DNA of 64,000 nucleotides. Origin: Xylographa opegraphella. Lineage: Eukaryota. The stretch is from positions 186,001-250,000 of the forward strand of contig JALDZX010000014.1 in assembly GCA_022813865.1 (NCBI GenBank), given 5' to 3'. How positions within the stretch are numbered: the first letter of the stretch is position 1; each line of letters begins with the position of its first letter. Both the position numbers and the translations under genes were made by a program. Below, piece by piece: positions 23,763-61,049 of this stretch. The notes under the pieces were generated by a model that was not told where the DNA came from, searched no databases, and saw only the letters and a program-made list of their open reading frames with translations.

Positions 23763-24564
23763 ATTGGATCCGGTATACAGTGAGCTCTTGCGGCTGTAAT
23801 GAACGAGCGCTATCACCGAGACTTGCTCTGCTGCGAGCTTTGGGGATGCTAAACTGCAGCTGGGTAATTTGGGGACCTGGAAGGATTTGGAGAATGGATA
23901 TGCTGGATAGTGCTCGGCTTTATGTGAGACGAGATGCCGAGTAAGGAGGCATTCACAATGTATGAGTCCTTGACCCCGTACATGACATAAGATTCACATT
24001 CCGGTCGATGAAACGCATCCAGAGTAGATTTGCGTGCCCACAATACCATTAATATGGCACACCATCTGAGATAATCGGAGCGCGAATAGCGTTGAACCGG
24101 AGGAGCTGAATGATTTCTGCAAGGTGCAGGAATGGTGAAGTGGATTTGTATCTTGGGGCTTTATCGGGGGAACACGAGTGGAGTTTGGTACTTGGGTTGT
24201 GGATTACGCTAAGCCAGTCCTCGCAAACTTCATGCACAGGTGTTACATCCATGATTGGATTTGAGGCTCGACGATTTTCTCAGTAGTTCGCCAATACGTG
24301 AAAGTAAAGAAGTTGAGAAACAATCAGAATATGATGAATAGTAAATAACAAGCAAAAGCGACAAAACATGGGATAGCGCTTGAATCCTACGCAGTAAAGC
24401 AGAAGATCACAGTCACTGATTCTCTCTGGGCCAAACGAACATGTCCAACCACACAGTCCATCTGACTCTTCAGAGGCCAAGCGTTTATGTTGAGAACCAA
24501 TTTTTCGATCGTAAGAGAGCCCTCAGAGTCACAACATACCAAGGAGTTGGTCCGCATAAGATGA

Positions 24565-25532
24565 CTAGGAAAAATCTTCCTCTATATCTCGTATCTCTTC
24601 GCCAAACTTTTCCCAGTAACCATCTTCAACCTGGTCACTCAAGATCTTCTCGTCATCATCAAGGTTGGGAGGGTTTTCCACTTGTAGCTCCGTAGCTGTA
24701 GACTCGCCTCGACTAGTCCTCATGTCGAAAACATTCAACAATTTCAACTGTCTCGATTGAAATTGAACTCCATCTTGAATGTCAACGTACTTGGCACCCA
24801 CGCGATGATACTGCGCAGCCCACACTCGATCGCCAAGGAAGGTACTACCGCCGCCAACCGTGAGACCAGAACTCGTCTTCCAATGGACATTCGGATTGAG
24901 CTGTAGCATGGCAGCAATGCCAGAAGGGTCCGGTAACGGCGCTGTGATCGACCCACCAAGGTCGGAGCTTTTGCCGGAGACGCTCAAACAAGTGGCATCT
25001 TTCATCATGTAAATCCCGGTCAAAAGCCATATGGAAGGGTCTCGCATTGTCAATCCGTAATAATACTTAAGCTTCTTCGAGACGGCGAGGCGGGACTGCA
25101 ACCAAAATCTGGCTGCGTCAGTCTGTAGGATAACGTCCTCGAAGAACTTCGCGGGCCTGTTTGCGCACGTCAAGTGAGAATAGATCATCAGATGTAGCAA
25201 GAAGCTATTCACTTTATGCATTCGATCTTCGAGCCAGTGCTGGCAACGACCACGTGGTAGTTGTCGTTGTTGCGAGAACTGTTGAGTTCTGCGAGATTCA
25301 GGATGCCTCCGCCAAACCTACATCCCTTGCCGGTCTTGTATACTACCCAGCAGTTACTTCTCGGATCATTGATAGTCCACAGATCGAGGTCATTGGGGGT
25401 AAGCTTTTCATGGATATAAGGATCTTGGAACCTGGGGTTCACGAAGTCAAACACAAGGCTTCCTAGTGTAAGGAGTCTAGGATCGACCCCCTCCCGGTAT
25501 CCAACGTATGTGAGTTTCTCTTCTGATACCAT
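24565..25532 (-). CDS. Fungal gasdermin-like pore-forming protein (HET-Q1/RCD-1 family), 303 aa
   Basis: Exon 1 (25532-25213), a 56-nt intron (GTGAAT...CAG, 25212-25157) and exon 2 (25156-24565) form an open 912-nt CDS. Motifs LTLGSLVFDFVNP, IWLLTGIYMMKDA and DRVWAAQYHRV, Gly/Ser-rich beta-hairpin-like segments, an acidic C-terminal tail and an adjacent protease gene. Confidence 0.75.
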
Positions 25533-25653
25533 AATGCTCGTTATATCACTCCTTTGATGATGGTGCTTTTGATGAAGAACGGCGCACGATTGGATCCTAC
25601 CCTTACCTAATGACAACGACACCTTTCCATGTTGAGTTAGGGCAATAGCCCCA

Positions 25654-28600
25654 ATGAGCTCGCCAGACTGCTGTTCAGCTCAAACTTGAAGCTGCTATGT
25701 GATTCATATAATAACTTGGAACAACATCGACTTCAGGGAAGTCTGTGACATTTTCGGCGGCACCATCTTCCTCGAAGAACCTCGTGGCAATTTTGCAACC
25801 GCGCGCGAGCAGATCAAGCAGCGTGAACATTCTGTTGCTGAAGCCTCGAACGATGAGAAGGCAGCTATTCCCTTACTTAAAGCCATTCACGTTGCTCTCG
25901 TTGGCAGTCTATTCGGTGACGATGAAAGCCCAAAGTTTCAGCAGTATATGTCTCCCCTCTATGTAGGAGACTTTGGCCCTCGATGGCAATTTAGAATCAA
26001 AGCTTATATTGTACTCGTTTCTTCGTGGCAGTTTTATCCACCATTATTTCGTTTTTGCAGTTTAGAAAGAGGCCCCATGTCTATGCTTCTTGACACTATT
26101 TCTCGAGCTCACGTACATAACTCCCACCTGGTAACAGAACTTCTGGAATCGGTGGATGGAGTCGAGCCTCTAGATGAGCTGGAGTTCCGGATCATACGGG
26201 AAGTATGGACTTTGTCACACAGGGCATTGGAGGGAGCGCGTATCTCGAATCCTTCGTATTTGTATCATACCCTCGGCTCCAACAATAGCAATCATAAGCC
26301 GGAGGTCTTTGAGAACTGTTGCACTCGTCATGCAGATGTTAGGGAGCTTGCCGAGGCTCTCAACCTTGACCTTGATACGATCTCCAACTATGCGGAACGA
26401 CTCATCTTCGAAGTTCGCCAAGCGCAAGGCTCACCGGACTCTGGCGAGCTGTTGGAGAATCTGAAGAAGAGATATGAAGCTTCGAACGATGAAGTCGGCG
26501 TAGGTATCTGTTGTATGTTACGTGCAGATTTCATAGTATCCGGTCCATTCACAAACCCAATAGCATTGAACCTGCTACCTGTGGATGGGTGGGACTATCT
26601 AGGAAGCGATACAAACTTGAATGAACTTAGTGCAACACCAATCCAATCCAAAGGATATTCCTCCGACACAAAATCCCCGACTTAATGGTGTGTCAGATGT
26701 GTCAGATGCGTCAGAAGAGCTAGAATCTATGCACCTGAAGGAGAAGGCCGGAAATCCAGAAGACGATCGAGATCCTTGGAAAGTTGCAGTGAGGGCTGCA
26801 ATTGTTTGCTATGAAGAGGCTGAAAGTATATTTGTACGAGCGGGCGCCGTTAGAGGTCAAGCTCTCGCTATCTCACGAAGGGCGTGTACGCTGCTAATAC
26901 AAGAACTGCTCCCCCGAACTTATTGGGACGATAGGGATAGCGTGATCCTTGATTAAATAAAGATTTTATTTGAGCAAACGTGTGAGCTATACGTGAAGGC
27001 TGGCGATACAATACTAGTGAAGCTGACTCAGATGCATATTATGCTGTTGGCGAGCCACTGTAACGACGACATCTACGAGGTGAAGCACGATATTGGTGAG
27101 TGGGGCTATGAGAACGGTAATTGGACGTATGCAGCACAGCTTGGTTTATTGGCATTCCGGCTCGGAGATCATCTGCGATATGAATGTGGCTCGAGCAGTA
27201 GAGCACGTTGGAGCTACGAGTGTGCGGGTTTGGTACTTTCGGAGCTGCGAGCTCAGGGGACGACCTTGTTCCAGCTGCAATGTGCAATAGTATCTCTACT
27301 TCTATCGACTAGCAGCCCGAAAGCTTGCAAGATCTATGTTCAGCTTGCGCAGCTCTTCTTCGAGAAGAGACTAATGGTCGAACTAGAGAAAGCAGCGGAG
27401 CAAGACCCATCGTGGTCGTTAGCATTGGGGTTCTTTGGCATGGTTCTTGCGGATCTTCTCATTGCCTCTTGTCAAAAGATGGAAAGTGCAACCACGATGA
27501 GAGAGGTCTGCTCAGCCCAATTGACACTCATGGAATCTTATGATTCAAGCCCACGCTCGCTCGAATGGCTTAGGCATAAGCGTGCAGTGGTTCAAATATA
27601 CTCTTTGATTTCAGAGTACGAAGAAGACCTCGATCGTGGAGATTGGGAAAGCGGTGAATCAAAGTTGACTGATTTCCTCGAACACACGACTGCTTCCAAG
27701 GATGAAGACATTGATACAAAACTAGCTCGTATAGATGTTTGCTTACATTTACAAAACTTTGATATGGCTCAAAACTTGCTGAAGACAGTCGATGTATGCG
27801 AGCTACTCACGGAATTTAGGATGGGTCTGGCATCTCTCCCAAATCCAGCGGACAAACTATATAATCGACGGCGGTCGATTAAAGCCTGTGAGAGTAAGCT
27901 ACAACGATGCATCAACGCCCGAGACTGGAGAAAGGCAGCAGAGCTGGTTGAGCTTCTTGAGAATTTATCGCCTGACCATTTCGAGTTTCCTGGCAACTAC
28001 TCGTACGTGGAACCGTGGCAACGCTTCCTATGGATTGGACTTCTCCAGGAATCGCAGAAGAAATATGAAATGTCCTACCATGCTTTCTCTCAGAGCCTTT
28101 TGGTTTTCTATTATGAATGGATCAGTGTCAGCGATTCGGACCAAAGGCGGTCGCAGCTGAACCACACCGATTTCAATCGCATAGCAACAGCTCTCGCACG
28201 CTTTCATCTCCGCAGACATAATGCCGAGGCTCCGGTACAGAGGATTTCCTCTCGGAAGGTGGATTGACAAAAAGTTCGTATAGTTGAACGCTGGAATACG
28301 GATTTCGTTCTGTCGAAAGATGCAGGCCAGGTTGATGCTTTGGAAGCATTAGAGAGGGGGAAAGCACTCTCGATCGCAGCATCACTTTCATTCAAGGCGG
28401 AATCATCGATTGCTGAAGTAAGAGAATGGGATCGAACACACCATAGATTCAGAACATGGCTCGACTTAATGACGCTTAGGAGACCTCGGACCAAGGACGA
28501 GGAAAAGGAATACCAACTCTTGGATAATTCGGCTCTAGAGATGGAGTTGAGAGCAAACCCTCTTAACGTTGACAAAAGGCCACTTTCCGAACAAGTGCTA

Positions 28601-29814
28601 TTGTATCCTGAAATCCTAGATGGGATCCCAGATGATACTGTCGTTATCTACTACAGTTTATCTGATGATGGCCTAGCTCTGCTCTCTATCGCTCGGACAG
28701 GCATTCTTTCCGCAATCTGGAATCCGGATATTTCAGCGTTGCAACGAGGAAAATGGTCTGTCGCTACGTTGGTTCAATCGCCGCGTACAAAGACAACGTG
28801 CCAGAAGATTGGCTCATATGCCTCACCTCATCAATGTCAGAAGTCTTTATTGAGCCAGTTCAAACAGATATCAAAAGTAGGAGCCAAGTTATCTTTGTTC
28901 CTTCCGGAGACCTAGCTCGATTCCCCTTGGGGGCTTTACTTCTGGATAACGTACCCCTATTGTTGAACAAGGCTGTATTTCAGGTTCCCAGTCTCTCGGC
29001 TCTGTATCATCTTCGTCAACGGCCTATGTGCAGTCAATCTCGCGTCTCTGTCATTGCAAGACCTGGTAGTATGAAAGAGGATGGCGAAGCTGCCCTCCCA
29101 ATGGCTGGCATAGAGGCACTCCTGGTTGGCCAAACTTTCGGTAGTACCCCTTTGGAGGCGTCCGGCGTTTCCAAGAACCAATTTCGTGAAGAGCTAGAGC
29201 ACTGTTCCATTATGCATCTTAGCACACATGGATACTTCGATGTTTCGGCTCCCTTATTATCCTATATTTCTCTTGAAGAGCGACTTAGAGTCATTGACAT
29301 GCTTGCAGTACGGACGAAGGCTGTTCTTGTCATTTTTAGTGCGCGTGTGAGCGGGACTGGCATCACGAATAAGGGCGATGATGTGCTCGGATTCTCACAT
29401 GCGATATTAGCAGCTGGTTCTCATGTGTATGTGGGTGCTCTATGGACTGCAAACGACCTTGTTACGATGATACACATGATCTTGTTCTATGTGGAGCTGG
29501 CGTCGATGGAAAAGCCAGCCCGCCTGGCAAATGTTTGGCGTCAAGCGACTCGTATGCTATACTTTGCCGAACCTTACCTGATAAAGGGACTCTTGACAGC
29601 TTATCTCGGCAGGTGGGACGAAATCGAAGCAGCAGGCTTGCTTCCCAACCAGTTTGTCCGAAATGGGCGACGAAAGCTGCAGAAAGCTATCGTTGAGTGG
29701 CTCACTCCTTCCGGACAGGCAGCCTTGGATCTTAAGCATCCTTACTACTGGGCCAATTTTATCATGATTGGGAACGCAAACATAACTATGCATGCAGTTC
29801 AAAGGCCTGTTTAA
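25654..29814 (+). pseudogene. Disrupted helical-repeat (TPR-like)-CHAT caspase-like protease gene
   Basis: CHAT motifs ALEALERGKA, VIFVPSGDLARFPLGAL, LPMAGIEA, MHLSTHG, VIFSA(R), GDDVLGFSHAILAAG, VGALWTAND and HPYYWANFIMIG. In-frame stops at 25687, 26954 and 28265, frame changes within 26621-26682 and near 28740, and CGT (Arg) at the catalytic Cys position 29344. Confidence 0.85.
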
Positions 29815-30372
29815 GCAATAATATCCTCGTTAAAGGACTCCCGGTTGGTTCTGAAGGCCCGACTCTATTGTAGTATCATTCAAGGACCAGGATTTACCTG
29901 ATACTACGTGATGTTCTCTCGAAGTAGAGATTACCTCCTTGTTTCCAAAACCAACCCGATCTCCCTTGAATATGAGGAATCTTGTGGCCAGAAGCTAATT
30001 ATTTCCAACTGCACACCGAATTCAAGGAGGCCAACGTCGCATGAGAAACCCATTGGACTTATACAAGCTCTGACCTGTAAAACAGGTTTGGAGCAAAGCC
30101 AGAAAACCAAAGATAGGAGACCAATCTAACAAGGCGCAGAAGTGGTGCAATAGGGAAGAAATGCCTGTCTCGTTATTGTGATCGCTTGTCTTGTGTATAT
30201 TTCAGCACAGAGCTGCAAGAGCCCCAGTATCATCAGGTACGCTGCCCCATATGACGTCGTGGACAAACAGCGGATACTTTTCACCTCGACTCAACCTCCA
30301 CACCGTCTCTCGGCTCAGTTTCGGACCGAATCAATCGTTTTTGTGACTTCAGCATTGGAAGCTTCTGATGAG

Positions 30373-31488
30373 ATGGCAAACTTGAATGATATCCCTCCCG
30401 AGATACGTTTACGGATCTATCCCTACGTTCTTCTCTCAGAACAGACCATTGTTCCACTTGCAGCTGAAAAGCCTTTGGAGGAGAACATCCTTCGCTCACA
30501 CTATGAGACCGCCATATTCACCGTCAACAGAAAGATCTCTCGTGAAAGTCTCTCATACTTCTATTCTCACAACTCGTTTGTGGCTGTGGAGACCAACACC
30601 ACTGGTTTCCTCTCCCAATGCTGCCGTGCCATACCAATGAACTTCGGACATAGCAGGACGCAGTTTAAGGAGTATGTCCTAAAACTACAATTCTATCAAT
30701 TTCTCGGACATACAACAATGCGCCACACTCGTTGTGCTTTTGCTGTTTTCGCCCGCCGATACCTCCGGAACTTCATCAGGCTGTTCGAGGCCTATCACTC
30801 GCCCATTCGTCAATTATTACCGGAGAAGGTTACTATGAGGATGAACATTGTGTTGAAAACGACCGGAGATCGCTTCAGGGACACTCCAGGCATCAAAGCC
30901 TCTTTGGTGAACGATCTCAAATTGCTTCGGGGATTCCCGGACGCCATTGAAGATTATATGTCGCTTACAATTTACAACTTGCCATCCCATCTCAACGACC
31001 TCGCGGTCATCAAGAATTACGAAGAGGCCGAACAAATCAGCACCGCAGGCGAGCGCTATCGCCAGCTGGCAGACTACGACACCGCCCGTGGCGAATATCT
31101 GATAGCACTATTCATGGCAACAGTCCCCAAGCATCCGGATCTTGAGCAAGGCTTCTTAGACACCGTGGATTTACTGTACGTGAACCTGCGTCGCAAGATG
31201 TCGGTCCTGGATTCCCAGCAGAAGCGGCACAAGTGCGCCATCGTCGAGGCTAGCAAAGCCTTCCACACACCAGGCGGTCGTGATCTCTGGGACTTCCTAA
31301 GCGACGAGCACATCACCCCGCTCTACGCTCGCTGGGCCTCCGCACTGGCGGACGATGGCCAGTACGAAGAAGCGATCAGCCTTTTTGAGAAGTGGCCTCC
31401 ACTCGTGACGAGCCATCCATCCTACCGGACCTTGTTTGAGGAGCTGAAGGCTGGTCGGAAAAGCCACGAAGCCCAGCAGAATACGTGA
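30373..31488 (+). CDS. Hypothetical protein with an N-terminal F-box-like motif and a C-terminal TPR-like region
   Basis: MANLNDIPPEIRLRIYPYVL, VNRKISRESLSYFYSHNSFV, and C-terminal helices (AGERYRQLADYDTARGEY; ALADDGQYEEAISLF). Confidence 0.7.
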   Translation: MANLNDIPPEIRLRIYPYVLLSEQTIVPLAAEKPLEENILRSHYETAIFTVNRKISRESLSYFYSHNSFVAVETNTTGFLSQCCRAIPMNFGHSRTQFKEYVLKLQFYQFLGHTTMRHTRCAFAVFARRYLRNFIRLFEAYHSPIRQLLPEKVTMRMNIVLKTTGDRFRDTPGIKASLVNDLKLLRGFPDAIEDYMSLTIYNLPSHLNDLAVIKNYEEAEQISTAGERYRQLADYDTARGEYLIALFMATVPKHPDLEQGFLDTVDLLYVNLRRKMSVLDSQQKRHKCAIVEASKAFHTPGGRDLWDFLSDEHITPLYARWASALADDGQYEEAISLFEKWPPLVTSHPSYRTLFEELKAGRKSHEAQQNT

Positions 31489-32136
31489 GGAAGGCGTTAA
31501 CGGCTCTTGGTTTCGAGGTATTTTCTTTTTTTCAATCAAATGCTTCTGCATTCGTCACGCCCCCCGGGGTTTCGATCCGCTCTGGCCCCGCTTTGGAACG
31601 ACGAACAGCCACATAGGCTCAGCTGTGCGAGACGAAGTCCATCCATCCATCTCATAAGACTCGCCAGGCCTGCCCTCCTCCTTCTACCCTTTCACGAAGC
31701 TACATCTTTTTGGAACTGCAACGTGCGTAGCCCTACCCCAGTCCTTCCGTTCACCGGTGCCCGGGCCTGGGAACCCACCGAGGTCTCGAGGAAACGTCCT
31801 GGTTGGGACGGAGATGGGGACGGGCTTCGAGCGGTTGACGGCCGCTTGGGGGCGAGTCTCACTTAGTACTCTATAGGTAGGGAGATAGGGATTCGAGAGG
31901 AGTTTTGAAGTATGCACTGATATGAACTGGGGATGAAGGGCGCGGGAGCGAGGGACCCCGGGACGCGCACCAGTGGTGGGTAGAATAGTACCGTAGGCCC
32001 AAGGACAGACGGGACCTGCAACGCGGCCTTCGTCGGCCGCGCAAGCTGGCGCAGCGTAGATGAAGGTACAGCCAGCGGGGAAGAAAAACACCGACACGGA
32101 CGACGAGGCGTTGAAAAAGTCTACGTCGCGGCATCA

Positions 32137-32139
<3 letters not shown>

Positions 32140-32167
<28 letters not shown>
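32140..32167. repeat. (AC)n microsatellite
   Basis: About 14 AC units downstream of the DFG5-like stop codon. Confidence 0.9.
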
Positions 32168-32542
32168 CGAACGAGTTAGTAGCGAGGACTCTCACACGAG
32201 ACCGTGCGCATCTGTATCATAAGCAAGCAAGCGGCGCAGGCATGAAGTAGGTTCTTTATTTTCTAAATATCATACATACACCAAACGACTCCTCGCCGGA
32301 GAAAAAACGGGACGAGCCCGAAGACAACAGAGCAACCCCCCGCCCCCCAACGCCAGTTTCGATGCCGGACAGCGTACCCCGATCTTGTGTGTGTGTGCGC
32401 GCGCAACCGGACCCATGCAGCCACTCCGCAGGAAGCTCCTCGATACACTTCGTCTCTTTGTACAAGCCAAGCCATGCTGCCCCTTCATCGGCCCTCTTCG
32501 TCAGCTACTTTCCCCACCTCTTCACCCCGCCTTCCCCTGCGC

Positions 32543-38178: not shown

Positions 38179-40326
38179 TTAGAAAGGCTGACTTTCGGTC
38201 AGACCTCTCCGGCCGACAACGCTCCGTGAACTCCTTCGACTCCTACTTTCAGTCCTCAGTCTCGTTGGCTTGTCAGTCATGTCTCCATCCACGCCCCTCT
38301 CCTCCTCGTGCCGTGTTCGCTCTCCCACCCGATCCTCGACAACACGGCTCTTGCTTCTCCTCCGAGAGTATTCCACCTCCCCAATCTCTTGGACACCTTT
38401 GCCACTCCCTGCATAAGAATACCTCCTTACACTCCTATCCCTTGTCCTTCCATCGCGGGAGGAGACTGTAGATTTCTGCCCAATGCTGACCTCCATAGCG
38501 CCACCTGCATCCTGCCTCTGACGGAAACTGATCGTCCTGTCCTTTATGTCTCCCCCTTTAAGGTCAAGCTTCATGCCTTGAGGAGCATTTGCAATACTGA
38601 TAGTGATGGCGCCATCCAACTTTTCGGCTCCACGTTGTTTATCCATCGAAGAGCGTGAAGGCGTCTTTGATTTCTTAATGTCGCTCCCTTCGCGACTGCT
38701 ACCGGCACGACTGCCGGAGCCGCTGCCATGACTGGCTTGTGTCTTACTGCGATGCCGTACGACTTGGTTGATCTTTTCTGCTGTAAGAGGTATAGGACGA
38801 TCAGCACCACTCTTGGCATCTTGATATGCCTCAGCTTCAAGCACTGGATCGCCACGGCCGCCGTGGTACGATACCGGACGACGTCCACGCCCGAGGGTTG
38901 TTTGTCGTGAAGGTCCGGCGTCTTCAGTAGGAGAGGTCTCGGGTGTACGCTTGTGGTGGTGAGCAGTCTTTAATGAGGAGGCAGAAGGTCTCGTAGTAGC
39001 AGAAAGGCGTGACGCGGGACGTGCTTCTTCTATGGACTGGCGTCTTGAAGATGTTGCGTATGGAAGGTCCTCTTTTTCATACATCGTCTGGCGCGGGCGC
39101 TGGCTCGAGTGGGTGGAGGTCGTAGTCGCTGCATGGCGTATCGTCGGACGCTGCAGGGTTTGACGCCTCGAAGGTAAAGGCCGCGATGGTGGTGGAGGCA
39201 TTGAGCGGTAGTAATCCGCATCCCACTCGATTGCTTCTTCCCGCTCAAGCAGAGGGAACGGCTCGTCGAGCGGCGTTATAGGAGATGGCCGTTCACTCCG
39301 GTGTGCCGACATTCGACGGAACAACTGTGGTTGATTGTGCGAACCGGCTGTGAAAAGTAATGGAAGCGAGTAATCCGCGACTACTTGCGCAGAATACATG
39401 GACGAGCGTCGAAAAGGCATATCGTGAGAAGGCGGCCACTCCGGTGGTGGTGGTGGTTGATATGGCGGTCTGAATGTTGTTTGCGGAAACGGATATGCAA
39501 CATGGCGTGGTGGAGAGGTTTGCAACGGAGTAGGAAGGAGAGTACTGGAATGGGGATAGTAAGGCTGAGGTTGATAAGATGCAGTGTCGATATAGAGAGG
39601 TTCAGGCGGTGGTTCGACATAGCTTGGCTGCACTCGCACGTAGTAGCCTTCCGCACCCACGCCCGCATGGTAACTCGCCGGTCTGGAACGTGGGCCTTGC
39701 CCTGGAGTCGGTCGTGGACGGGCAGTTGGTGGGCGTGATAATGGTATGGTCTGGACTTCTGGGGCTCTTGGGGCCCGGCTTGCTTGCGGTGAAGGTGGCC
39801 CTGTATGCCGAAGTCGCTGCGGGCGTTCTGGTGGAACGTTGCGAGAAGCGGATGGGGCTTCCACTGGGATTGCTGAAAGCCGTATCCTGGCTGCGGCTTC
39901 TCTCCCCTCGAATGAACCCCGACGTAAGTCACTGTTCTTCTGCGCCCTCGACAAAGTCCTTCGCAAACTGGGCTTCTCCGGGCTCGGCTCTCTGTTCTCG
40001 CCCGCCATCTGTGCGCCGCTCGAGGCGTTCTTGCTTGTAATCTGCAGACTGCCGGAGCTCATAGATATACCTGCAAGCTTCGATCCCTGCGACGATGAGC
40101 CGTAGCCAGCCACCGTCGCGAGCGTTTGACTCGAGTAGCCGGAATCGCTTGCTTCATCTCGTCCCTTGGTTGTGTTGATGGGCTTGTTGTGAAGCTCTGG
40201 CCTGGATCGCTTGGCGGCAATATTGGCCGTCTGGCGGGTTCCAGGAACAGTAGCGTGGGTGTCTTCGCTGTAGTCTTCGAGATAGGCGGCGTGGCAGTCG
40301 GAGCGCAAGGGGTTGTTGCTGGACAT
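38179..40326 (-). CDS. Hypothetical low-complexity Pro/Ser/Arg-rich protein (715 aa)
   Basis: A 2.1-kb single-frame ORF with AYLEDYSED and DSGYSS near the N-terminus. No catalytic domain was recognised. Confidence 0.75.
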   Translation of the reverse strand: MSSNNPLRSDCHAAYLEDYSEDTHATVPGTRQTANIAAKRSRPELHNKPINTTKGRDEASDSGYSSQTLATVAGYGSSSQGSKLAGISMSSGSLQITSKNASSGAQMAGENREPSPEKPSLRRTLSRAQKNSDLRRGSFEGREAAARIRLSAIPVEAPSASRNVPPERPQRLRHTGPPSPQASRAPRAPEVQTIPLSRPPTARPRPTPGQGPRSRPASYHAGVGAEGYYVRVQPSYVEPPPEPLYIDTASYQPQPYYPHSSTLLPTPLQTSPPRHVAYPFPQTTFRPPYQPPPPPEWPPSHDMPFRRSSMYSAQVVADYSLPLLFTAGSHNQPQLFRRMSAHRSERPSPITPLDEPFPLLEREEAIEWDADYYRSMPPPPSRPLPSRRQTLQRPTIRHAATTTSTHSSQRPRQTMYEKEDLPYATSSRRQSIEEARPASRLSATTRPSASSLKTAHHHKRTPETSPTEDAGPSRQTTLGRGRRPVSYHGGRGDPVLEAEAYQDAKSGADRPIPLTAEKINQVVRHRSKTQASHGSGSGSRAGSSREGSDIKKSKTPSRSSMDKQRGAEKLDGAITISIANAPQGMKLDLKGGDIKDRTISFRQRQDAGGAMEVSIGQKSTVSSRDGRTRDRSVRRYSYAGSGKGVQEIGEVEYSRRRSKSRVVEDRVGERTRHEEERGVDGDMTDKPTRLRTESRSRRSSRSVVGRRGLTESQPF

Positions 40327-51236: not shown

Positions 51237-52640
51237 CTAGATACTACGGGACTCGTACTGCGATTCAGTGTCGGAATCGAGCCTTTCCAGATACGGGGAG
51301 TCGCGGCTTTTGAAAGACGACACTTTCGACGCTTTTGGCTTTGTTTCCAGCTTCCGAGTTGCAGCAAATTGGTGATCGAATGTTTGGAGCACTCGAAGAG
51401 CCTCTGCCTCCGATGATATCAGCGCTGCATACTTGTCCTCATGGGGTGCGCTGTTGGACGATATCAATTCCCATGTGTCTGAATCGATATCTGCAGCAAG
51501 GGCATCCGTTCGCCAAAATTTGAGGACTAGACCCGCCCATGTCTCGTCGCTCATGGAGCTGGCTTGCAAAGCTTGAAGCGTCGTCGCTTTATGCCTCGTA
51601 TGTTCGATGGTTGACGACTGCAGGCGGTCCAATATCCACTTGTTGATACGTGCTCTCGCTATGCGGAAGTTCTTTCGAAAATACGGTATTGCACTATCGC
51701 TCTGGTGTGTATGCGTGATCGATCTCGTTTGATACTGCTTCGAGGTCGTTTTGCTCGATGAAATGGATGATGGTAGGTCTGGCCATTGCCGCTCTTCTAT
51801 GTGATGGCCAATCGCTACTGCTTGTTGCTTTAGCAGTCCCACGTCCTCCTTCGCGTGGTTCAAGTCTTGCATGATGCGCCTATAATTTACCTTAAAGTCT
51901 CGAATTGACTGTGGGTCGCGTGGACTTTCTATGTCATGGAGAGCCCATGAACCATCAGCAGGGCCGGCAAAATTCCGAGCATGACTAGTTATGTTGCGCC
52001 TGCTGTGCTCATGAAGAATATCTAAGAGTTGTTCTTGTAGAATATTCGTGTCTCCAACTCGAGACTGATACGCCTCAAGGATAGACTGCTCTGGCAAAGC
52101 TGCATTGTGCAAGTTTGATCCTTCGTCCGAAGAAGAGCTGTTCTTTTTGACCGAGGTTGACCACTCTGGCGCATAATTCCTTTCTCCTGATGTTGAAAGT
52201 GTCTGCGATTTGATCATGAGCTCGGCTTCATCCAAGTCTAGCTCGACACCATCGTATTCGTCTTCCGCTCGATCATAATCATACTGTAGTACCGCAAGAT
52301 TTTCTCTCGAAGATTGTAACTCGTTCCAAAGATTGTCGAATTCGGATACTTCTCCAGGCAAACCGTCTTTCAGCGCACGTCGAACAAATTCATGGAACCT
52401 TGCTTCAATTTTGCTGTATGCCCATCTTTCTTCTCGCAGTTCGTTGCGTTTTTCCTTCAGTCTCAGTCTACCTCGGAATAATGCATCTCTCAGCTCCGCA
52501 AGCCTCTCTTCAGCCGTGTGGTTCTCTTTGTGTTCGGCGAGGTAGTATGATTGTGGCTGTAGAGGAGTGATTTGCATCAGAGTTGCCTCATTTGGCTCCA
52601 GAAATGGTCCGTCCAGAGAGTCGTCTCCACTAAAGAACAT
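51237..52640 (-). CDS. Hypothetical coiled-coil protein
   Basis: A long ORF (494 codons from a TTG; first ATG at 52640) with heptad-rich LRLKEKRNELREER and YDYDRAEDEYD segments, plus RINKWILDRL. Confidence 0.7.
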   Translation of the reverse strand: MFFSGDDSLDGPFLEPNEATLMQITPLQPQSYYLAEHKENHTAEERLAELRDALFRGRLRLKEKRNELREERWAYSKIEARFHEFVRRALKDGLPGEVSEFDNLWNELQSSRENLAVLQYDYDRAEDEYDGVELDLDEAELMIKSQTLSTSGERNYAPEWSTSVKKNSSSSDEGSNLHNAALPEQSILEAYQSRVGDTNILQEQLLDILHEHSRRNITSHARNFAGPADGSWALHDIESPRDPQSIRDFKVNYRRIMQDLNHAKEDVGLLKQQAVAIGHHIEERQWPDLPSSISSSKTTSKQYQTRSITHTHQSDSAIPYFRKNFRIARARINKWILDRLQSSTIEHTRHKATTLQALQASSMSDETWAGLVLKFWRTDALAADIDSDTWELISSNSAPHEDKYAALISSEAEALRVLQTFDHQFAATRKLETKPKASKVSSFKSRDSPYLERLDSDTESQYESRSI

Positions 52641-56174: not shown

Positions 56175-58246
56175 ATGAAGCGTAAACTAAATGAAGAAGA
56201 TGTTCCGGCTCTGGTAGTTTCAGAAAGTCCGAACAAAACTCATCAAACATTTGAGAACCTAGGATTGGACACTCGCCTACTTCAAGCCATAAGTCATGAA
56301 CAATTTACAACTCCCACGCCTGTTCAGTCAAGAGCTATTCCGTTGGCACTCGAGGGCAAAGATATTCTGGGTATGTGGATTACTTGCTGTATAGTTTCTA
56401 CCGTAATTACTGACAGAGAAAGCCCGGGCGAAGACAGGATCGGGCAAAACAGCTGCCTACATTCTGCCTATTCTTGAGGCAATCTTGCGCAAGAAGGCTG
56501 TAGGTCGGAACCCAAGTCGTCGTTTGTGCCACGTTGATTGTGCTACAGACCACGGTAACAACAAGAGCAACAACTGCTCTGGTCCTTGTGCCCACAAGAG
56601 AACTGGCAGAGCAGGTGACCAAGGCATTCACATCATTTTCCGCCTTTTGCGCCAAGGATGTTAGCATCATCAACCTGACACAAAAGACACCCGATACGGT
56701 GCAACGTTCGTTGTTGGCAGATTTGCCAGATGTCGTCGTTGCAACACCAGCTCGGGCATTCCTCAACGTTAGCACCTCAGCGCTTTCCTTACAGGACCTA
56801 GCACATCTGGTCATTGATGAGGCGGATCTCGTTCTTTCCTATGGATACGAGGAAGATCTACAACATGTTGCGAAGGCTATACCCAGCGGTGTTCAGACAT
56901 ATCTGATGAGTGCAACTTTGAGTGTTGAGGTGGATACAGTGAAAGGGCTGTTTTGCAGGGATCCTGTTATCCTTGCCCTAGATCAAATTGAAGACGAGAA
57001 TAACGATGTGAGCCAGTACGTGGTCAAGTAGGTGTTACCAAGCTCTTATATGGTAGAAAAGCCCAGCTAATCCTTCGGTAAAAGGTGTGCAGAAGACGAG
57101 AAATTCCTCCTGATCTACGTGATATTTAAGCTCAAGCTCGTCAAGGGGAAATGTATCATATTCGTTGGAGACATTGACAGGTGCTATAGACTGAAGCTGT
57201 ATCTAGAGCAATTTGGGACGAGAAGCTGCGTCTTGAACTCCGAATTACCTGTGAACTCACGTATCCATGTAGCTGAGGAGTTTAATAAGGGAGTTTATGA
57301 TATTATCATAGCCTCAGACGAAAATGAAGTTCTCGGGTCTGAAAACCATCATACAAGGCATATATCCAAAATTACCAGCACAAGTACGACCACGAAAACA
57401 ATCTCGGCACAGGAAGGAGAAGTCGAAGCAGCAGATCGTACTTCCTCAGATCTAGTTGAAGCCGAGCACCCAGATGAACAAGGAGAAAAATCTACTGCAC
57501 AGCCGAGCATCAATAAAAAAGCCCGCAAATCTGCCAAACTGGATAAAGAATATGGCATCTCGCGCGGTATCGACTTCAAAAACGTCGCCTGCGTCTTAAA
57601 TTTCGACCTCCCTACCACTTCGAAGTCGTACGCCCATCGAATCGGCCGTACTGCTCGTGCAGGCAAAACCGGCATGGCCTTATCTTTCGTCGTGCCTGCT
57701 TCACTCTACCGCAAACACAAACCTACGTCCTTCCCCACAGCCCAGCATGACGAGGCTGTCCTCGCGAAGATTACTGCACAGCAATTAAAGAAAGGCAAGG
57801 AAGTCAAGCCTTACCACTTCGATATGCAGCAAGTCGCCGCCTTTCGATACCGCATGAGCGACGCGTTACGAGCCGTGACCCGGGTGGCGATCCGCGAGGC
57901 GCGGACACGTGAGCTGAGACAAGAATTGCTGAAGAGCGAGAAGCTGAAGAGACATTTCGAGGAGAATCCAGATGATCTACATCATCTGAGGCATGACGGC
58001 GAATTGAGAGCCGCAAGGGTACAGCCCCATCTGAAGCATGTGCCAGACTATCTGATGCCGAGTAACGGTGCGAAGGGCATTGCTGGGAGAGAGATTGGAT
58101 TTGTGAGTCTGCGGAAGGAGAGTGATAATCGGATACGGAACGCGAGGTTGAAGAATCAGAATCGAGGAAAAGGAAAAGGAAAGGGGAGGAAGGTAGGGAG
58201 AAGGGCGGATCCGTTGAAGACGTTCAATGCGAGAGGGAGGAAATAG
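56175..58246 (+). CDS. DBP9: ATP-dependent DEAD-box RNA helicase Dbp9
   Basis: MKRKL start, [70 protein letters not shown] and HLKHVPDYL. Confidence 0.96.
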
Positions 58247-58369: not shown

Positions 58370-58596
58370 TGTTGAAAGGTACGATGGGTACTGAAGCGCA
58401 GTGGTCATTCTAGCAGAATATATGGGTAANNNNNNNNNNNNNNNNNNNNNNNNNNNNNNNNNNNNNNNNNNNNNNNNNNCGCTAGTGCGCGAGCATATAG
58501 TCTCGTAGTTGTTCATAGCTAATACAACACACTTGTTTACCCAAACATTCTGCTAGAATGACCACTGCGCTTCAGTACCCACCGTACCTTTCAACA
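58370..58596. repeat. 60-bp inverted repeat pair (TGTTG...CAACA) bracketing an assembly gap
   Basis: 58370-58429 matches the reverse complement of 58537-58596 at 57 of 60 positions. Confidence 0.9.
58430..58479. other. Assembly gap (50 N)
   Basis: Run of N characters. Confidence 1.
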
Positions 58597-59025
58597 CTTT
58601 TTATACTTTTTATATTTTTTATACTTTTTATATTTTTATATTGTTTATACTGTTTATATTTTTTATACTTTTTTTATTTTATATTGTTTATATTTTTTAT
58701 TTTTTATATTGTTTATGTTGTTTATGTTTTTTATGTTTTTTATATTGTTTATGTTGTTTATGTTTTTTATGTTTTTTTATATTGTTTATGTTGTTTATGT
58801 TTTTTATGTTTTTTTATATTGTTTATGTTGTTTATGTTTTTTATGTTTTTTTATATTGTTTATGTTGTTTATGTTTTTTATGTTTTTTTATATTGTTTAT
58901 GTTGTTTATGTTGTTTATGTTGTTTATGTTTTTTTATATTGTTTATGTTGTTTATGTTTTTTATGTTTTTTATTTTTTTTTATGTTTTTTATTTTTTTTT
59001 ATATTTTTTATATTTTTTATATTAT
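58597..59025. repeat. Degenerate 9-bp tandem repeat (TTTATGTTG/TTTATATTG/TTTATGTTT)
   Basis: About 430 bp of 9-nt-periodic T-rich units, almost devoid of C. Confidence 0.9.
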
Positions 59026-59029
59026 AAAA

Positions 59030-60920
59030 TACGGGTAGCTAAATAATATAATTTTTTAAAATTAATTAATTTTATTTTATATATAAGATTTATTAATTTA
59101 TTAATTTATTTATCGACGACTTCGCGATTTTTAAAGTCGACTAAATATATTTTAAAAGTTAATTTATAAATTAATTATTAATTAATTATTAATAATATTT
59201 TTATTTCCTTTAGTTTTAAAATATTTATTACGTTATTATTAACTATTTATGATTCTAGGAAATTATTTTTTACTTCGACGATTTTGACTGCGACGATTAA
59301 ATTTTTATTATAAATATTATTTTTATTTAAAGATTTTATTTTTATTTTTTCGACGGTATATTGTATTAAAAAATATTAAATGTTAAAATATAGGTTTATA
59401 AATTTTTTATTATTTTTAAAATAAACCGCCAGATCTGCTTCGTTTAAAAATATTAACAAATATTTATTAACGTTATATTTTTTATGAAATTACTAAGGTT
59501 AATTCTTTACGATATTGTTATAAATTAAAAATATTATTTATGGTATAAACGTAAAAAAGATTTGCGTTTATTAGGTATACGGAAAAACTTTTATACGTTA
59601 ATTTAAAATGAAAATTACGATTAAAAGAAAGTTTTCGATATTTTAATTATAATAAAGGTTTTAATGCAAAATAAAAATATAATATTTTTTAAAGTAAAAA
59701 CACTTTTTTCAATTTTTTTGTCAATTAAAAACGTAATAACTATATTAATAATTGAATTTTCATAATTATTAGTAATAATTCTTTTAACAAGGTTTTAAAC
59801 GAAAATTTCTTAATAAAAATATTAATTTAATAAAAGTTTTCGCCTTAATTGCTTTATAAAATACGTTTTCAAAATAATATAAATTATTACGAGCGTATTG
59901 TTTGCGAAATTTTTAGAAAAATAAAATTTTAAATTTACGTATTTATTAATTCGATGTTCATTAACATTAAGTTTTTAAATGATAAATAACGAAATTATTT
60001 TCAAAATATTTAATTTTTATTTTTATTCGAGTAAAAACTTTCGATCGATTAAAATTATTATATAAATTAAATTAAAATATATTTAAATAAAAAAAATATT
60101 CCATAAAACTTTTATTTATATTATAATATGATATTATTTTTAACAATTTAAATTGTTCGCTTATAATTAAACGTCGTTTCATTTTAAAATATAAAAAATA
60201 ATCATAATAATTTTATCGACTGCTATAAACTTTAATTTGATTATTTTTTGTTTACATAACAATATTTAGTTTTTTTTAAATTTACACAAAAATTATTCTA
60301 AGATTTAAAAATCTTATCGTACGTATTATATTAATATTTGGATATTACGAAACATATCGCGAATTTATAATTTTTTACGAAAATTTTAATGCTATTTAAA
60401 TAAATACTATAATTTTGATTTTAATAATTACACGATTATTTATTTTATACGTTATAATAACCTTGACTGTAATAAACTTTATAATAATTTTGCTTGTAAT
60501 AAATTTGAATTTTTTTTATTAGAAGTTTTTTTAATATTAATAGCAGCGAGTTTTATGTTCTGAATATTTTACTGTTTTTATCATAATAAATTATTAATCG
60601 CTATTTTAAGGAATAATAATCATTTTAATAATCGTTTTAATTTAATAAAAGTTTTTTTAATCTTTCGACGGTTTTTCGGCCGCGTTATTTATATTTTAAA
60701 ATCAAATTTAATTATTTAACGTAATTTTTAAATAAATAATAATAGTTGCCGTGATTATTAAATTAAATTCAATAAGAAAGTGTCAAAAAATTTAAATAAT
60801 TTAAAAAAAAGTTAAAAAAGTATTTTATAAGCGAATAACTTTAAAAAATAATTAAAAATTTTAAGAATTTTTCGAATTATTTGAAAAATTATTTTCGACG
60901 CATTAAAAGGGGGTAATTTT
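59030..60920 (+). mobile_element. Heavily RIP-mutated repeat, possibly the 3' part of a plus-strand Ty3/Gypsy element
   Basis: Extremely AT-rich with no ORFs. A faint VFH-like relic lies near 60095 and a polypurine-tract-like TTAAAAGGGGGTAAT at 60903-60917. The family assignment is weak. Confidence 0.4.
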
Positions 60921-61049
60921 ATTTATCTTCAAATTTAGATTTAAATTAAATTTAATTATTTGGCTACGAATGGTTAAACGGCTTATATTTATTAAATTTA
61001 TTGATTTATTTTGATTTTAAATTTTTAAAAAACATTTATATAATAATAT

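Follow-up and report, generated by a model that had tools for sequence, protein, structure and literature searches.

Within the 64,000-nucleotide stretch of contig JALDZX010000014.1 analyzed here (the window), Xylographa opegraphella carries a gasdermin-like gene on the minus strand and, divergently oriented on the plus strand 193 bp away, the pseudogene of a TPR-CHAT protease (Table 1). The question raised by this locus is whether the gasdermin has outlived its partner because it serves a purpose of its own, or whether one gene of a decaying module simply broke before the other. An earlier note on this DNA had suggested that the haplotype could be a heterokaryon-incompatibility allele, while allowing that simple decay was a real alternative given that the gasdermin is a roughly four-fold smaller mutational target. 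Simple decay is better supported by our results than the heterokaryon-incompatibility reading, with a size ratio of ~4.5, and in our view the X. opegraphella locus is a gasdermin/CHAT pair of a known kind that is in decay.

Table 1. Features of the X. opegraphella gasdermin/protease locus (positions in the window)
Feature	Position	Strand	Details
Gasdermin-like gene, intact	24565..25532	-	303 aa, 912-nt CDS, one intron
Gasdermin exon 1	25213-25532	-	ATG at 25532-25530
Gasdermin intron	25157-25212	-	56 nt, GT..AG
Gasdermin exon 2	24565-25156	-	TAG stop at 24567-24565
Spacer between divergent genes	25533..25725	.	193 bp; from both gene models
TPR-CHAT (caspase-like) protease pseudogene	25726..29814	+	Intronless, ~1,360 codons
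Lost protease start codon	25726..25728	+	ATC (Ile) versus orthologue Met1
Frameshift 1	26683..26695	+	13 nt versus one codon in relatives, net +10 nt
Nonsense TAA	26954..26956	+	Codon 407 of the read-through
Nonsense TGA	28265..28267	+	Codon 844
Frameshift 2	28739..28740	+	2 nt versus a Ser codon in relatives, -1 nt
CHAT protease domain	28837..29775	+	Pfam PF12770; dyad His CAT 29227-29229 kept
Catalytic Cys>Arg (CGT)	29344..29346	+	Cys in relatives
Residual 353-codon ORF	28753..29814	+	First ATG past frameshift 2 to the original TAA

The gasdermin-like gene bears no lesion, as had been claimed: its 303-aa reading frame is unbroken, the splice signals of its intron are intact, and exon 2 is 100% identical to the NCBI protein MMC26_002758 of X. 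opegraphella (303 aa). Sequence searches did little to place the product. Pfam returned nothing at E ≤ 10 for three gasdermin orthologues, no Pfam gasdermin family matched any of 45 aligned family members at E ≤ 0.1, and sequence-only PDB searches with gasdermin exon 2, the full gasdermin and the CHAT piece of the window gave chance-level matches (E 0.27 to 0.51). When the family profile was compared with PDB, RCD-1-1 ranked top at a nonsignificant E of 0.15. The ESM Atlas listed at rank 19 (score 0.93) a cluster in which 13% of members carry PF26164 Bact_GSDM, which we treat as a lead only. Placement came from an AlphaFold2 model (pLDDT 80.1, pTM 0.82), for which all three Foldseek matches at E ≤ 0.001 were RCD-1 chains (E 1.1e-4 to 5.6e-4), followed by bacterial and then by Trichoplax and mammalian gasdermins. 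VIA Z values for the model were 9.6 (rmsd 3.6, 166 aligned), 8.7 and 7.9 against RCD-1, 7.1 against a bacterial gasdermin and 6.0 against GSDMD; values below 8 may mean just a common arrangement, and those above it belong to RCD-1 rows only. As modeled, the protein is predicted to adopt the fold of a gasdermin N-terminal domain.

In the X. opegraphella protein, none of the nine family positions that are invariant or nearly so has changed (G24, F111, P147, W150, T153, G154, W219, A220 and A221). The C-terminal tail is conserved at Arg256 (32/43 family members) and Trp288 (30/42), and the model places a confident C-terminal helix at residues 285 to 302. The protein would be a pore former whose tail is a putative cleavable inhibitor. 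Cleavage would then be the activation step, with conserved Arg256-Gly257 as a possible site.

The partner belongs to the CHAT proteases. Its translation from 28669-29814 matches Pfam PF12770 over residues 57 to 369 (profile positions 8 to 289 of 289; E 5.2e-29, 102 bits versus a cutoff of 24), and a 27-sequence CHAT family profile hits type III-E TPR-CHAT/Csx29 structures (E 7e-11), the H-G and A-C motifs lining up between the two. Besides this motif alignment, what is generally understood of clan CD proteases leads us to take the His and Cys of these motifs to be the catalytic dyad. The four upstream protease pieces of the window matched no Pfam family at E ≤ 0.01, hence no Pfam TPR. Positions 350 to 800 of the 27-sequence profile do match TPR proteins (GPSM2, designed CTPR and IFIT1; E 1e-10 to 1e-5), in a mixed fungal and bacterial alignment whose bacterial members include some with clear TPRs. 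When eight relatives were used in tblastn, the pseudogene resolved into three frame segments in colinear order (25726-26682, 26696-28738 and 28741-29811). The X. pallens orthologue (1,357 aa) is colinear with the pseudogene, whose identity to Xylographa orthologues is 79 to 84%.

Comparison with 14 relatives revealed six lesions in the protease: loss of the start codon, two nonsense codons, two frameshifts and replacement of the catalytic Cys by Arg. All eight full-length relatives begin with M-D-F-R at 25726, where the window reads ATC. The earlier note had instead counted the TGA at 25687 as an in-frame lesion. This codon closes the frame 39 nt upstream of 25726, with no in-frame ATG between the two; since it sits upstream of the orthologous Met1 position, it is no lesion, and the true 5' lesion is the lost start codon. 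The first frame change had been placed within 26621-26682. The shift is real, but it lies just past that range, at 26683-26695, where the old frame stops at once (TAA, 26683-26685) and three tandem 9-nt units (26690-26716) adjoin it.

The other lesions are as first described. At the column of the TAA at 26954, relatives have E (five), G, K or D, and none has a stop; at that of the TGA at 28265, the seven closest relatives have R (six) or G (relative P0001), and a more distant clade has D. The frame change near 28740 is the loss of 1 nt at 28739-28740, from a column that is Ser in 14/14 relatives. The catalytic His of the HLSTHG motif at 29227 is kept, whereas SAC has become SAR through CGT at 29344, a position that is Cys in 14/14 relatives and invariant in 27/27 diverse fungal and bacterial CHAT proteins. 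The protease consequently retains only the His of its dyad, and it has neither a start codon nor a continuous reading frame. Public annotation contains no full-length protease gene here, only a 353-aa remnant; the corresponding 353-codon ORF, which carries the Cys>Arg change, has an exact match in NCBI/nr on a 456,519-nt contig. The central observation of a dead protease next to an open gasdermin is therefore upheld on both counts, with two items of the lesion list amended (the TGA at 25687 and the position of the first shift).

Two sources of these lesions were considered and rejected. Introns do not account for the frame changes, a point on which we agree with the first description, because orthologous proteins run colinearly across the 13-nt and 2-nt gaps. 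RIP was rejected on its indices, which are the same in the flanks (TpA/ApT, 0.68; [CpA+TpG]/[ApC+GpT], 1.35), and it is also disfavored because at least E>TAA and ATG>ATC are transversions, as inferred from the orthologue residues.

The pseudogene looks young, since its replacements are no more numerous than those of intact orthologues and still avoid conserved sites. In Tajima counts of the protease, window-unique versus orthologue-unique replacements numbered 53:62 with X. pallens, 60:73 with X. carneopallida and 48:75 with X. soralifera. Only 8 of 63 window-unique replacements fell on invariant sites, as defined from the other nine sequences, although such sites make up 394 of 1,167 (binomial P = 1e-4); the intact X. 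carneopallida protein gave a similar 10 of 71. Neighboring genes provided no calibration of divergence, with exact matches for three of seven ORFs, all of them singleton 90% clusters.

Relatives point to an ancestral pairing that may have been damaged more than once. X. pallens encodes a full-length protease (1,357 aa) and gasdermin (303 aa) on consecutive locus tags (006679/006680) of one contig, X. soralifera has both on consecutive tags 000708/000709, and four further records hold protease and gasdermin fragments on contigs of matching size; the comparison thus indicates that the gasdermin/CHAT pairing is ancestral. In X. soralifera P0006, residues 359 to 380 fit the wrong frame of the window (score, 78 versus 14 and 11 for the other frames), and the last 44 residues are absent. 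X. parallela P0003 likewise fits the wrong frame past residue 160 (38 versus 12 and 11), P0004 (99% identical to it) begins only at residue 168, and relative P0001 begins only at residue 418. The out-of-frame stretches and truncations in the X. parallela and X. soralifera orthologues would fit recurrent decay.

We consider it probable that the module is decaying, that its protease was recently pseudogenized and that the intactness of the gasdermin needs no special explanation. Modules of this kind are known in fungi, and according to PMC8851545, 19% of 1,884 fungal gasdermin genes adjoin a CHAT-type protease gene. In an intact module, the gasdermin-like pore former would be kept inactive by its C-terminal tail, and the large TPR-CHAT protease on the other strand, once triggered, would cut this tail off. 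The 193-bp spacer is presumably a promoter shared by the two genes. In X. opegraphella, the protease has recently become a unitary pseudogene, and the pathway encoded at the locus would now be off because of the start loss, two nonsense codons, two frameshifts and the Cys>Arg change at the catalytic site. The gasdermin ORF may still be whole because it is ~4.5 times smaller than the protease, was orphaned only recently and is harmless while autoinhibited, which would put the module at an early stage of birth-and-death decay and the orphan gasdermin under neutral evolution. For its 912-nt CDS, 0.89 to 1.12 disruptions would be expected if it were neutral, with a probability of 0.33 to 0.41 of finding none, so its intactness proves nothing about selection. 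On the other side, a random replacement would hit one of the two dyad residues of the protease at P ~0.09, so the inactivation was maybe not purely random. At a 4.5-fold difference in target size, one broken gene beside an intact neighbor is by itself no evidence of selection.

The gasdermin could instead have been kept by selection as an executioner fired by another protease in the genome, by a pathogen protease or, in a het-like manner, by a protease encountered at hyphal fusion. We regard this as unlikely, although several observations speak for it. The ORF and splice sites are intact, 9/9 conserved positions are kept, and the 30 lineage-unique gasdermin replacements lie at variable sites (mean column entropy, 3.01 versus 2.61 for all sites; permutation P = 0.002), with only four in the most conserved third. 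This avoidance of conserved sites is compatible with selection for retention, but it mostly spans the time before the protease died. Thirteen of the 30 changes cluster at residues 234 to 279, in the linker and tail around Arg256, which could reflect retuning to a new protease. Against three outgroups from one clade, tail counts for the window versus X. pallens were 15:3, 14:1 and 13:2; the asymmetry vanished with a second outgroup lineage (6:4 and 7:8) and is not seen for exon 1 (5:4). The tail may have evolved faster in the X. opegraphella lineage, which would fit relaxation as well as retuning.

Other fungi lend retention some plausibility. Of the fungal gasdermin genes surveyed in PMC8851545, 20% have no protease neighbor, and het-Q is described there as a split gasdermin/protease pair able to act in allorecognition. 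Candidates for another activator in the same genome would be an S8 protease or a CHAT paralogue. No X. opegraphella protein was found among 87 and 81 CHAT relatives, each set scored from 7,999 candidates of 629 to 2,004 aa, which argues weakly against retention. The het-like version is further weakened by X. pallens, in which the full-length genes lie side by side. With both genes in one cytoplasm, the protease must normally be latent beside its gasdermin, and fusion with a protease-positive strain would then presumably add nothing lethal. Idiomorphic haplotypes would be unrelated, each without the other's gene. Here, the protease remnant is colinear, point mutated and 79 to 84% identical to its orthologues, and the damage in X. 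parallela and X. soralifera fits recurrent decay.

A more specific possibility is that X. opegraphella maintains a balanced polymorphism with the protease-null/gasdermin-intact haplotype on one side; protease loss would then have been selected, and the gasdermin would be a tripwire for a foreign or allelic protease to cleave. We hold this to be improbable; if true, it would make the locus the first candidate allorecognition or immune cell death locus in a lichen-forming fungus. Such a polymorphism might also extend to other Xylographa species with a damaged-looking protease. In it, the Cys>Arg change might have come first or have suppressed a deregulated CHAT-only fragment.

We give very little credence to the idea that the 353-codon CHAT-only ORF (28753-29814) is expressed and that its product, like a pseudo-caspase, regulates the gasdermin or serves as its decoy without protease activity. 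The frame runs open between its ATG and the original stop and is annotated by gene callers, only the Cys is missing from an otherwise intact CHAT fold signature, and the Cys>Arg change is, as noted, mildly improbable by chance. Since the isolated CHAT domain of Podospora Q2L-6 acts on its gasdermin, according to PMC8851545, a product consisting of CHAT alone might still be able to bind the gasdermin; however, a 3' ORF of 353 codons is expected by chance in a young pseudogene. Among sequencing runs, one carries this DNA, and two others of the same study matched none of it even at 80% likeness. Finally, although the lesions are known from one sample's DNA alone, we dismiss as most improbable of all that they are sequencing or assembly errors in a really intact gene, given that a Logan contig from a separate assembly (13,047 nt, word depth 165), probably from the window's own sample and not a second individual, repeats every base of 24500-29900 (5,401 identical, 0 other letters, 0 gaps) and so excludes an assembler slip, that the six lesions are independent and of four kinds, three being base substitutions and not homopolymer slips, and that public annotation likewise has only the remnant.

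Module decay thus remains our preferred reading, and its interest lies in the nature of the pair. What the caspase-gasdermin axis is to animals, gasdermin/protease pairs are to fungi, and the X. opegraphella locus would offer a dated snapshot of how orphan gasdermins originate, the partner decaying in place by point mutations and small indels while the gasdermin ORF stays untouched. It also brings lichen-forming Lecanoromycetes into the range of the CHAT-type pair, and congeners show signs of repeated damage. A natural protease-null/gasdermin-intact genotype, together with X. pallens, where both genes are full length, is of modest value for tests of cleavage specificity. Our literature search found no paper on the X. 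opegraphella genome and, in the texts consulted, no account of a partner protease that had decayed; the string "pseudogen" is absent from the main text of PMC8851545, whose datasets S1 to S3 may list orphans or lichen fungi.

Known systems resemble the Xylographa pair to different degrees. Two are prokaryotic: bacterial operons of a gasdermin with a caspase-like or CHAT protease, whose gasdermin fold was matched at Z 7.1, and Csx29 of type III-E CRISPR, matched by the CHAT profile (E 7e-11) in an alignment that superposes the catalytic H-G and A-C motifs. Both have other regulatory domains and are distant in sequence. Neurospora crassa RCD-1 (PDB 8jyy, 8jyz and 8jyx) provides the best structural matches to the gasdermin model, although at only 10 to 14% identity. 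RCD-1 is described as becoming active when two allelic variants interact, with no cleavage involved (PMC8851545, PMC13475620), whereas the gasdermin family studied here ends in an acidic tail and a C-terminal helix and is partnered by a protease. With het-Q1/het-Q2 of Podospora anserina, the haplotype studied here shares the effective state of a gasdermin without a working protease. However, het-Q2 is an S8 subtilisin rather than a CHAT protease, and the het-Q idiomorphs are unrelated in sequence, each without the other's gene, according to PMC8851545, in contrast to the colinear decayed remnant in X. opegraphella.

The likeness to Q1-6/Q2L-6 of P. anserina, which we compared by description, lies in a two-gene cluster of a gasdermin and a TPR-CHAT protein, as in Xylographa. 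There, the CHAT domain of Q2L-6 is reported to cleave the neighboring gasdermin Q1-6 (Clave et al. 2022, PMC8851545), and activation is presumed in both to proceed by removal of a short C-terminal tail. The N-terminal region of ~1,000 aa in the window has no Pfam TPR match, so that the TPR likeness to Q2L-6 holds at the level of the family profile only. The CHAT gene of X. opegraphella differs above all in being a pseudogene with six lesions.

The protease gene of Xylographa opegraphella, a lichen-forming ascomycete, is a pseudogene. Eight relatives compared with the window by tblastn gave a single colinear, intronless alignment in three frame segments, and lesions were compared in a 15-sequence alignment of the window and 14 relatives (see the table). 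The earlier note had listed a TGA at 25687 as an in-frame stop; this codon closes the frame upstream, but since the orthologous Met1 falls at 25726 and there are no ATGs between the two, it lies outside the ancestral CDS, and the true 5' lesion is the lost start codon. The two internal stops, the second frame change (given as near 28740), the retained dyad His at 29227, and the Arg codon replacing the catalytic Cys were all exactly where that note had placed them. Its first frame change was also real, but the range of 26621-26682 stopped just short of the actual site, which adjoins three tandem 9-nt units. Neither the catalytic Cys column nor the dyad His column varied in an alignment of 27 diverse fungal and bacterial CHAT proteins (27/27).

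Coordinates of the gene pair, the protease lesions, and neighboring features in the window
Feature	Position	Strand	Detail
Gasdermin-like gene	24565-25532	-	ATG at 25532; product 303 aa
Gasdermin exon 1	25213-25532	-	320 nt
Gasdermin intron	25212-25157	-	56 nt, GT..AG
Gasdermin exon 2	24565-25156	-	592 nt; TAG at 24567-24565 closes frame
Protease remnant	25726-29814	+	~1,360 codons
Lesion 1, start-codon loss	25726	+	ATC vs Met1 in 8/8 full-length relatives
Lesion 2, net +10 nt	26683-26695	+	13 nt vs one codon in relatives
Lesion 3, nonsense TAA	26954	+	15-sequence alignment
Lesion 4, nonsense TGA	28265	+	15-sequence alignment
Lesion 5, -1 nt	28739-28740	+	two nt vs Ser codon in 14/14 relatives
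Lesion 6, catalytic Cys>Arg (CGT)	29344	+	Cys in 14/14 relatives
ORF without Pfam family	30373-31485	+	annotated protein of contig
ORF without Pfam family	38182-40326	-	annotated protein of contig
ORF without Pfam family	51240-52640	-	annotated protein of contig
Scaffold gap, run of 50 N	58430-58479		

Because a 13,047-nt Logan contig with a word depth of 165, built independently from the single public run with matching DNA and probably from the same source sample as the window, was identical over all 5,401 bases compared, an assembler slip is excluded as the cause of the lesions, although they may be strain specific. Repeat-induced point mutation (RIP) was ruled out as their source, the dinucleotide indices of the pseudogene being equal to those of its flanks. 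The only public annotation at the protease locus is a remnant ORF of 353 aa (28753-29814, +). This CHAT-only ORF, in which Arg replaces the catalytic Cys, stands as an NCBI/nr protein record, and an annotation-based survey would score the protease-dead fragment as a CHAT neighbor.

The identity of the ancestral protein is clear from its final third, which matches the CHAT domain PF12770 (E = 5.2e-29; 102 bits versus a cutoff of 24). A search with the CHAT piece found at least 87 long relatives; among the matches listed, the closest was from X. pallens (1,357 aa, 83% identity), and further close relatives came from X. carneopallida (1,356 aa), X. soralifera (1,308 aa), and X. parallela (1,158 aa). 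The profile of the 27 CHAT proteins matched TPR proteins over positions 350 to 800 and type III-E CRISPR TPR-CHAT/Csx29 structures (E = 7e-11), the H-G and A-C motifs of Csx29 being in register with those of the family.

The small gene was harder to place by sequence. No Pfam family was found at E ≤ 10 for its product or two orthologues, none of 45 aligned members (0/45) matched a gasdermin family in Pfam, and PDB searches with the sequence returned only noise. An exhaustive phmmer search nonetheless yielded 152 relatives at E ≤ 0.001, of which those 45, members of 235 to 378 aa, were aligned; their profile ranked RCD-1-1 first in the PDB at a nonsignificant E value of 0.15. From this alignment AlphaFold2 produced a confident model (pLDDT 80.1, pTM 0.82), for which the only three Foldseek matches with E ≤ 0.001 were all to chains of RCD-1, a gasdermin-like protein of Neurospora, followed in the ranking by bacterial, Trichoplax, and mammalian gasdermins. 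VIA-align gave Z scores of 9.6 (rmsd 3.6, 166 aligned), 8.7, and 7.9 against RCD-1 entries, 7.1 and 7.0 against bacterial gasdermin, and about 6 against GSDMD, GSDME, and GSDMA3. We therefore accept the predicted protein as gasdermin-like from its modeled fold and gene context rather than from sequence statistics. In the model, an acidic linker is followed by a confident helix at the C terminus (residues 285 to 302). Within the linker, Arg256 is kept in 32/43 family members and Gly257 in 23/43, making Arg256-Gly257 a candidate cleavage site. The X. soralifera gasdermin as annotated (P0091, 287 aa) lacks the final 16 residues, aligned to window 24565-24615, and thereby most of the conserved and presumably inhibitory C-terminal helix.

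The two genes are divergent and 193 bp apart, and exon 2 of the gasdermin matches the X. opegraphella hypothetical protein MMC26_002758 (303 aa, on a contig of 456,519 nt) at 100% identity. The pairing is ancestral: in both X. pallens and X. soralifera, the locus tags of the two genes are consecutive.

The protease appears to have died recently. With an X placed at each break, its read-through is 79 to 84% identical to Xylographa orthologues, and the intact orthologues are 79 to 89% identical among themselves. Tajima counts (window:orthologue, with the protease relative P0007 as the outgroup) were 53:62 for X. pallens, 60:73 for X. carneopallida, and 48:75 for X. soralifera, showing no excess of window-specific replacements; other outgroups gave similar results. 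Only 8 of 63 window-unique replacements fell at sites invariant in nine other sequences (394 of 1,167 sites; P = 1e-4), no higher than the 12/41 and 10/71 of intact lineages. The lack of a replacement excess, together with this avoidance of invariant sites, suggests that the branch was mostly spent under constraint.

The gasdermin is free of lesions, as the earlier note had observed, with an open 303-aa frame. However, with five ORF-disrupting events over the 4,086 nt of protease, a neutral CDS of 912 nt would be expected to collect 0.9 to 1.1, so that the probability of finding none is 0.33 to 0.41; an open frame thus says nothing by itself. In favor of constraint, 9/9 invariant or near-invariant family residues are kept in the gasdermin, and its 30 lineage-unique replacements shun conserved columns (4/30 in the most conserved third; P = 0.002). 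The X. pallens and X. soralifera orthologues show similar avoidance, which in X. opegraphella is mostly a record of the time before protease death. On the side of relaxation, residues 234 to 279 (linker and tail; window 24565-24780) hold 13 of the 30 unique changes, around the conserved Arg256, a cluster that could reflect either relaxation after protease loss or simply a fast-evolving acidic linker. Relative-rate counts against X. pallens in exon 2 were 15:3, 14:1, and 13:2 with three outgroups, all from one clade, whereas the skew was not seen with another outgroup lineage (6:4) or in exon 1 (5:4).

Congeneric proteases also appear damaged, at positions corresponding to window 26190-26920 and 29680-29814. 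Residues 359 to 380 of P0006 (X. soralifera) fit the wrong frame of the window (score 78 versus 14 and 11), and the protein ends 44 residues early, with invariant C-terminal columns lost. P0003 (X. parallela) fits a wrong frame beyond residue 160 (38 versus 12 and 11). N termini lie at residue 120 in P0003, 168 in P0004 (99% identical to P0003), and 418 in P0001. Such damage could be genuine, or it could stem from annotation or assembly; the pattern fits recurrent birth and death of the protease gene.

The neighboring genes are of housekeeping type (APC3-like TPR protein, flavin reductase, phosphopantetheinyl transferase, GH76, and arginyl-tRNA synthetase), and each of the three ORFs without a Pfam family is alone in its 90%-identity cluster. 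A CA/GT dinucleotide microsatellite at about 32100-32190, upstream of the GH76 gene, lies in a stretch of 63% GC and shows as T-H-T-H and V-C-V-C in ORF translations. Immediately past the helicase-C ORF 57071-58246, an AT-rich block begins at the 50-N gap and runs to the window end (58400-64000; about 20% GC, range 0.15 to 0.26), with RIP-like indices of 1.06 for TpA/ApT and 0.78 for (CpA+TpG)/(ApC+GpT).

Taken together, the best reading, which we consider reasonably probable, is that a cell-death pair of known type has recently lost its activating protease by ordinary decay. Protease loss would leave an orphan gasdermin that, because it is auto-inhibited, would be harmless. One small oddity is left over, namely, the Cys>Arg change on a dyad residue (chance P of about 0.09) together with the surviving CHAT-only ORF. 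The earlier note had proposed that the combination of dead protease and open gasdermin could be a heterokaryon-incompatibility allele, with the gasdermin triggered in trans by another protease or by a protease-positive strain at hyphal fusion. This is less probable. In X. pallens one genome holds both genes at full length, which implies that the protease is latent as a rule; protease loss alone would then create no lethal combination on fusion. Moreover, whereas the Podospora het-Q locus is idiomorphic (PMC8851545), the X. opegraphella locus is not idiomorphic in that sense.
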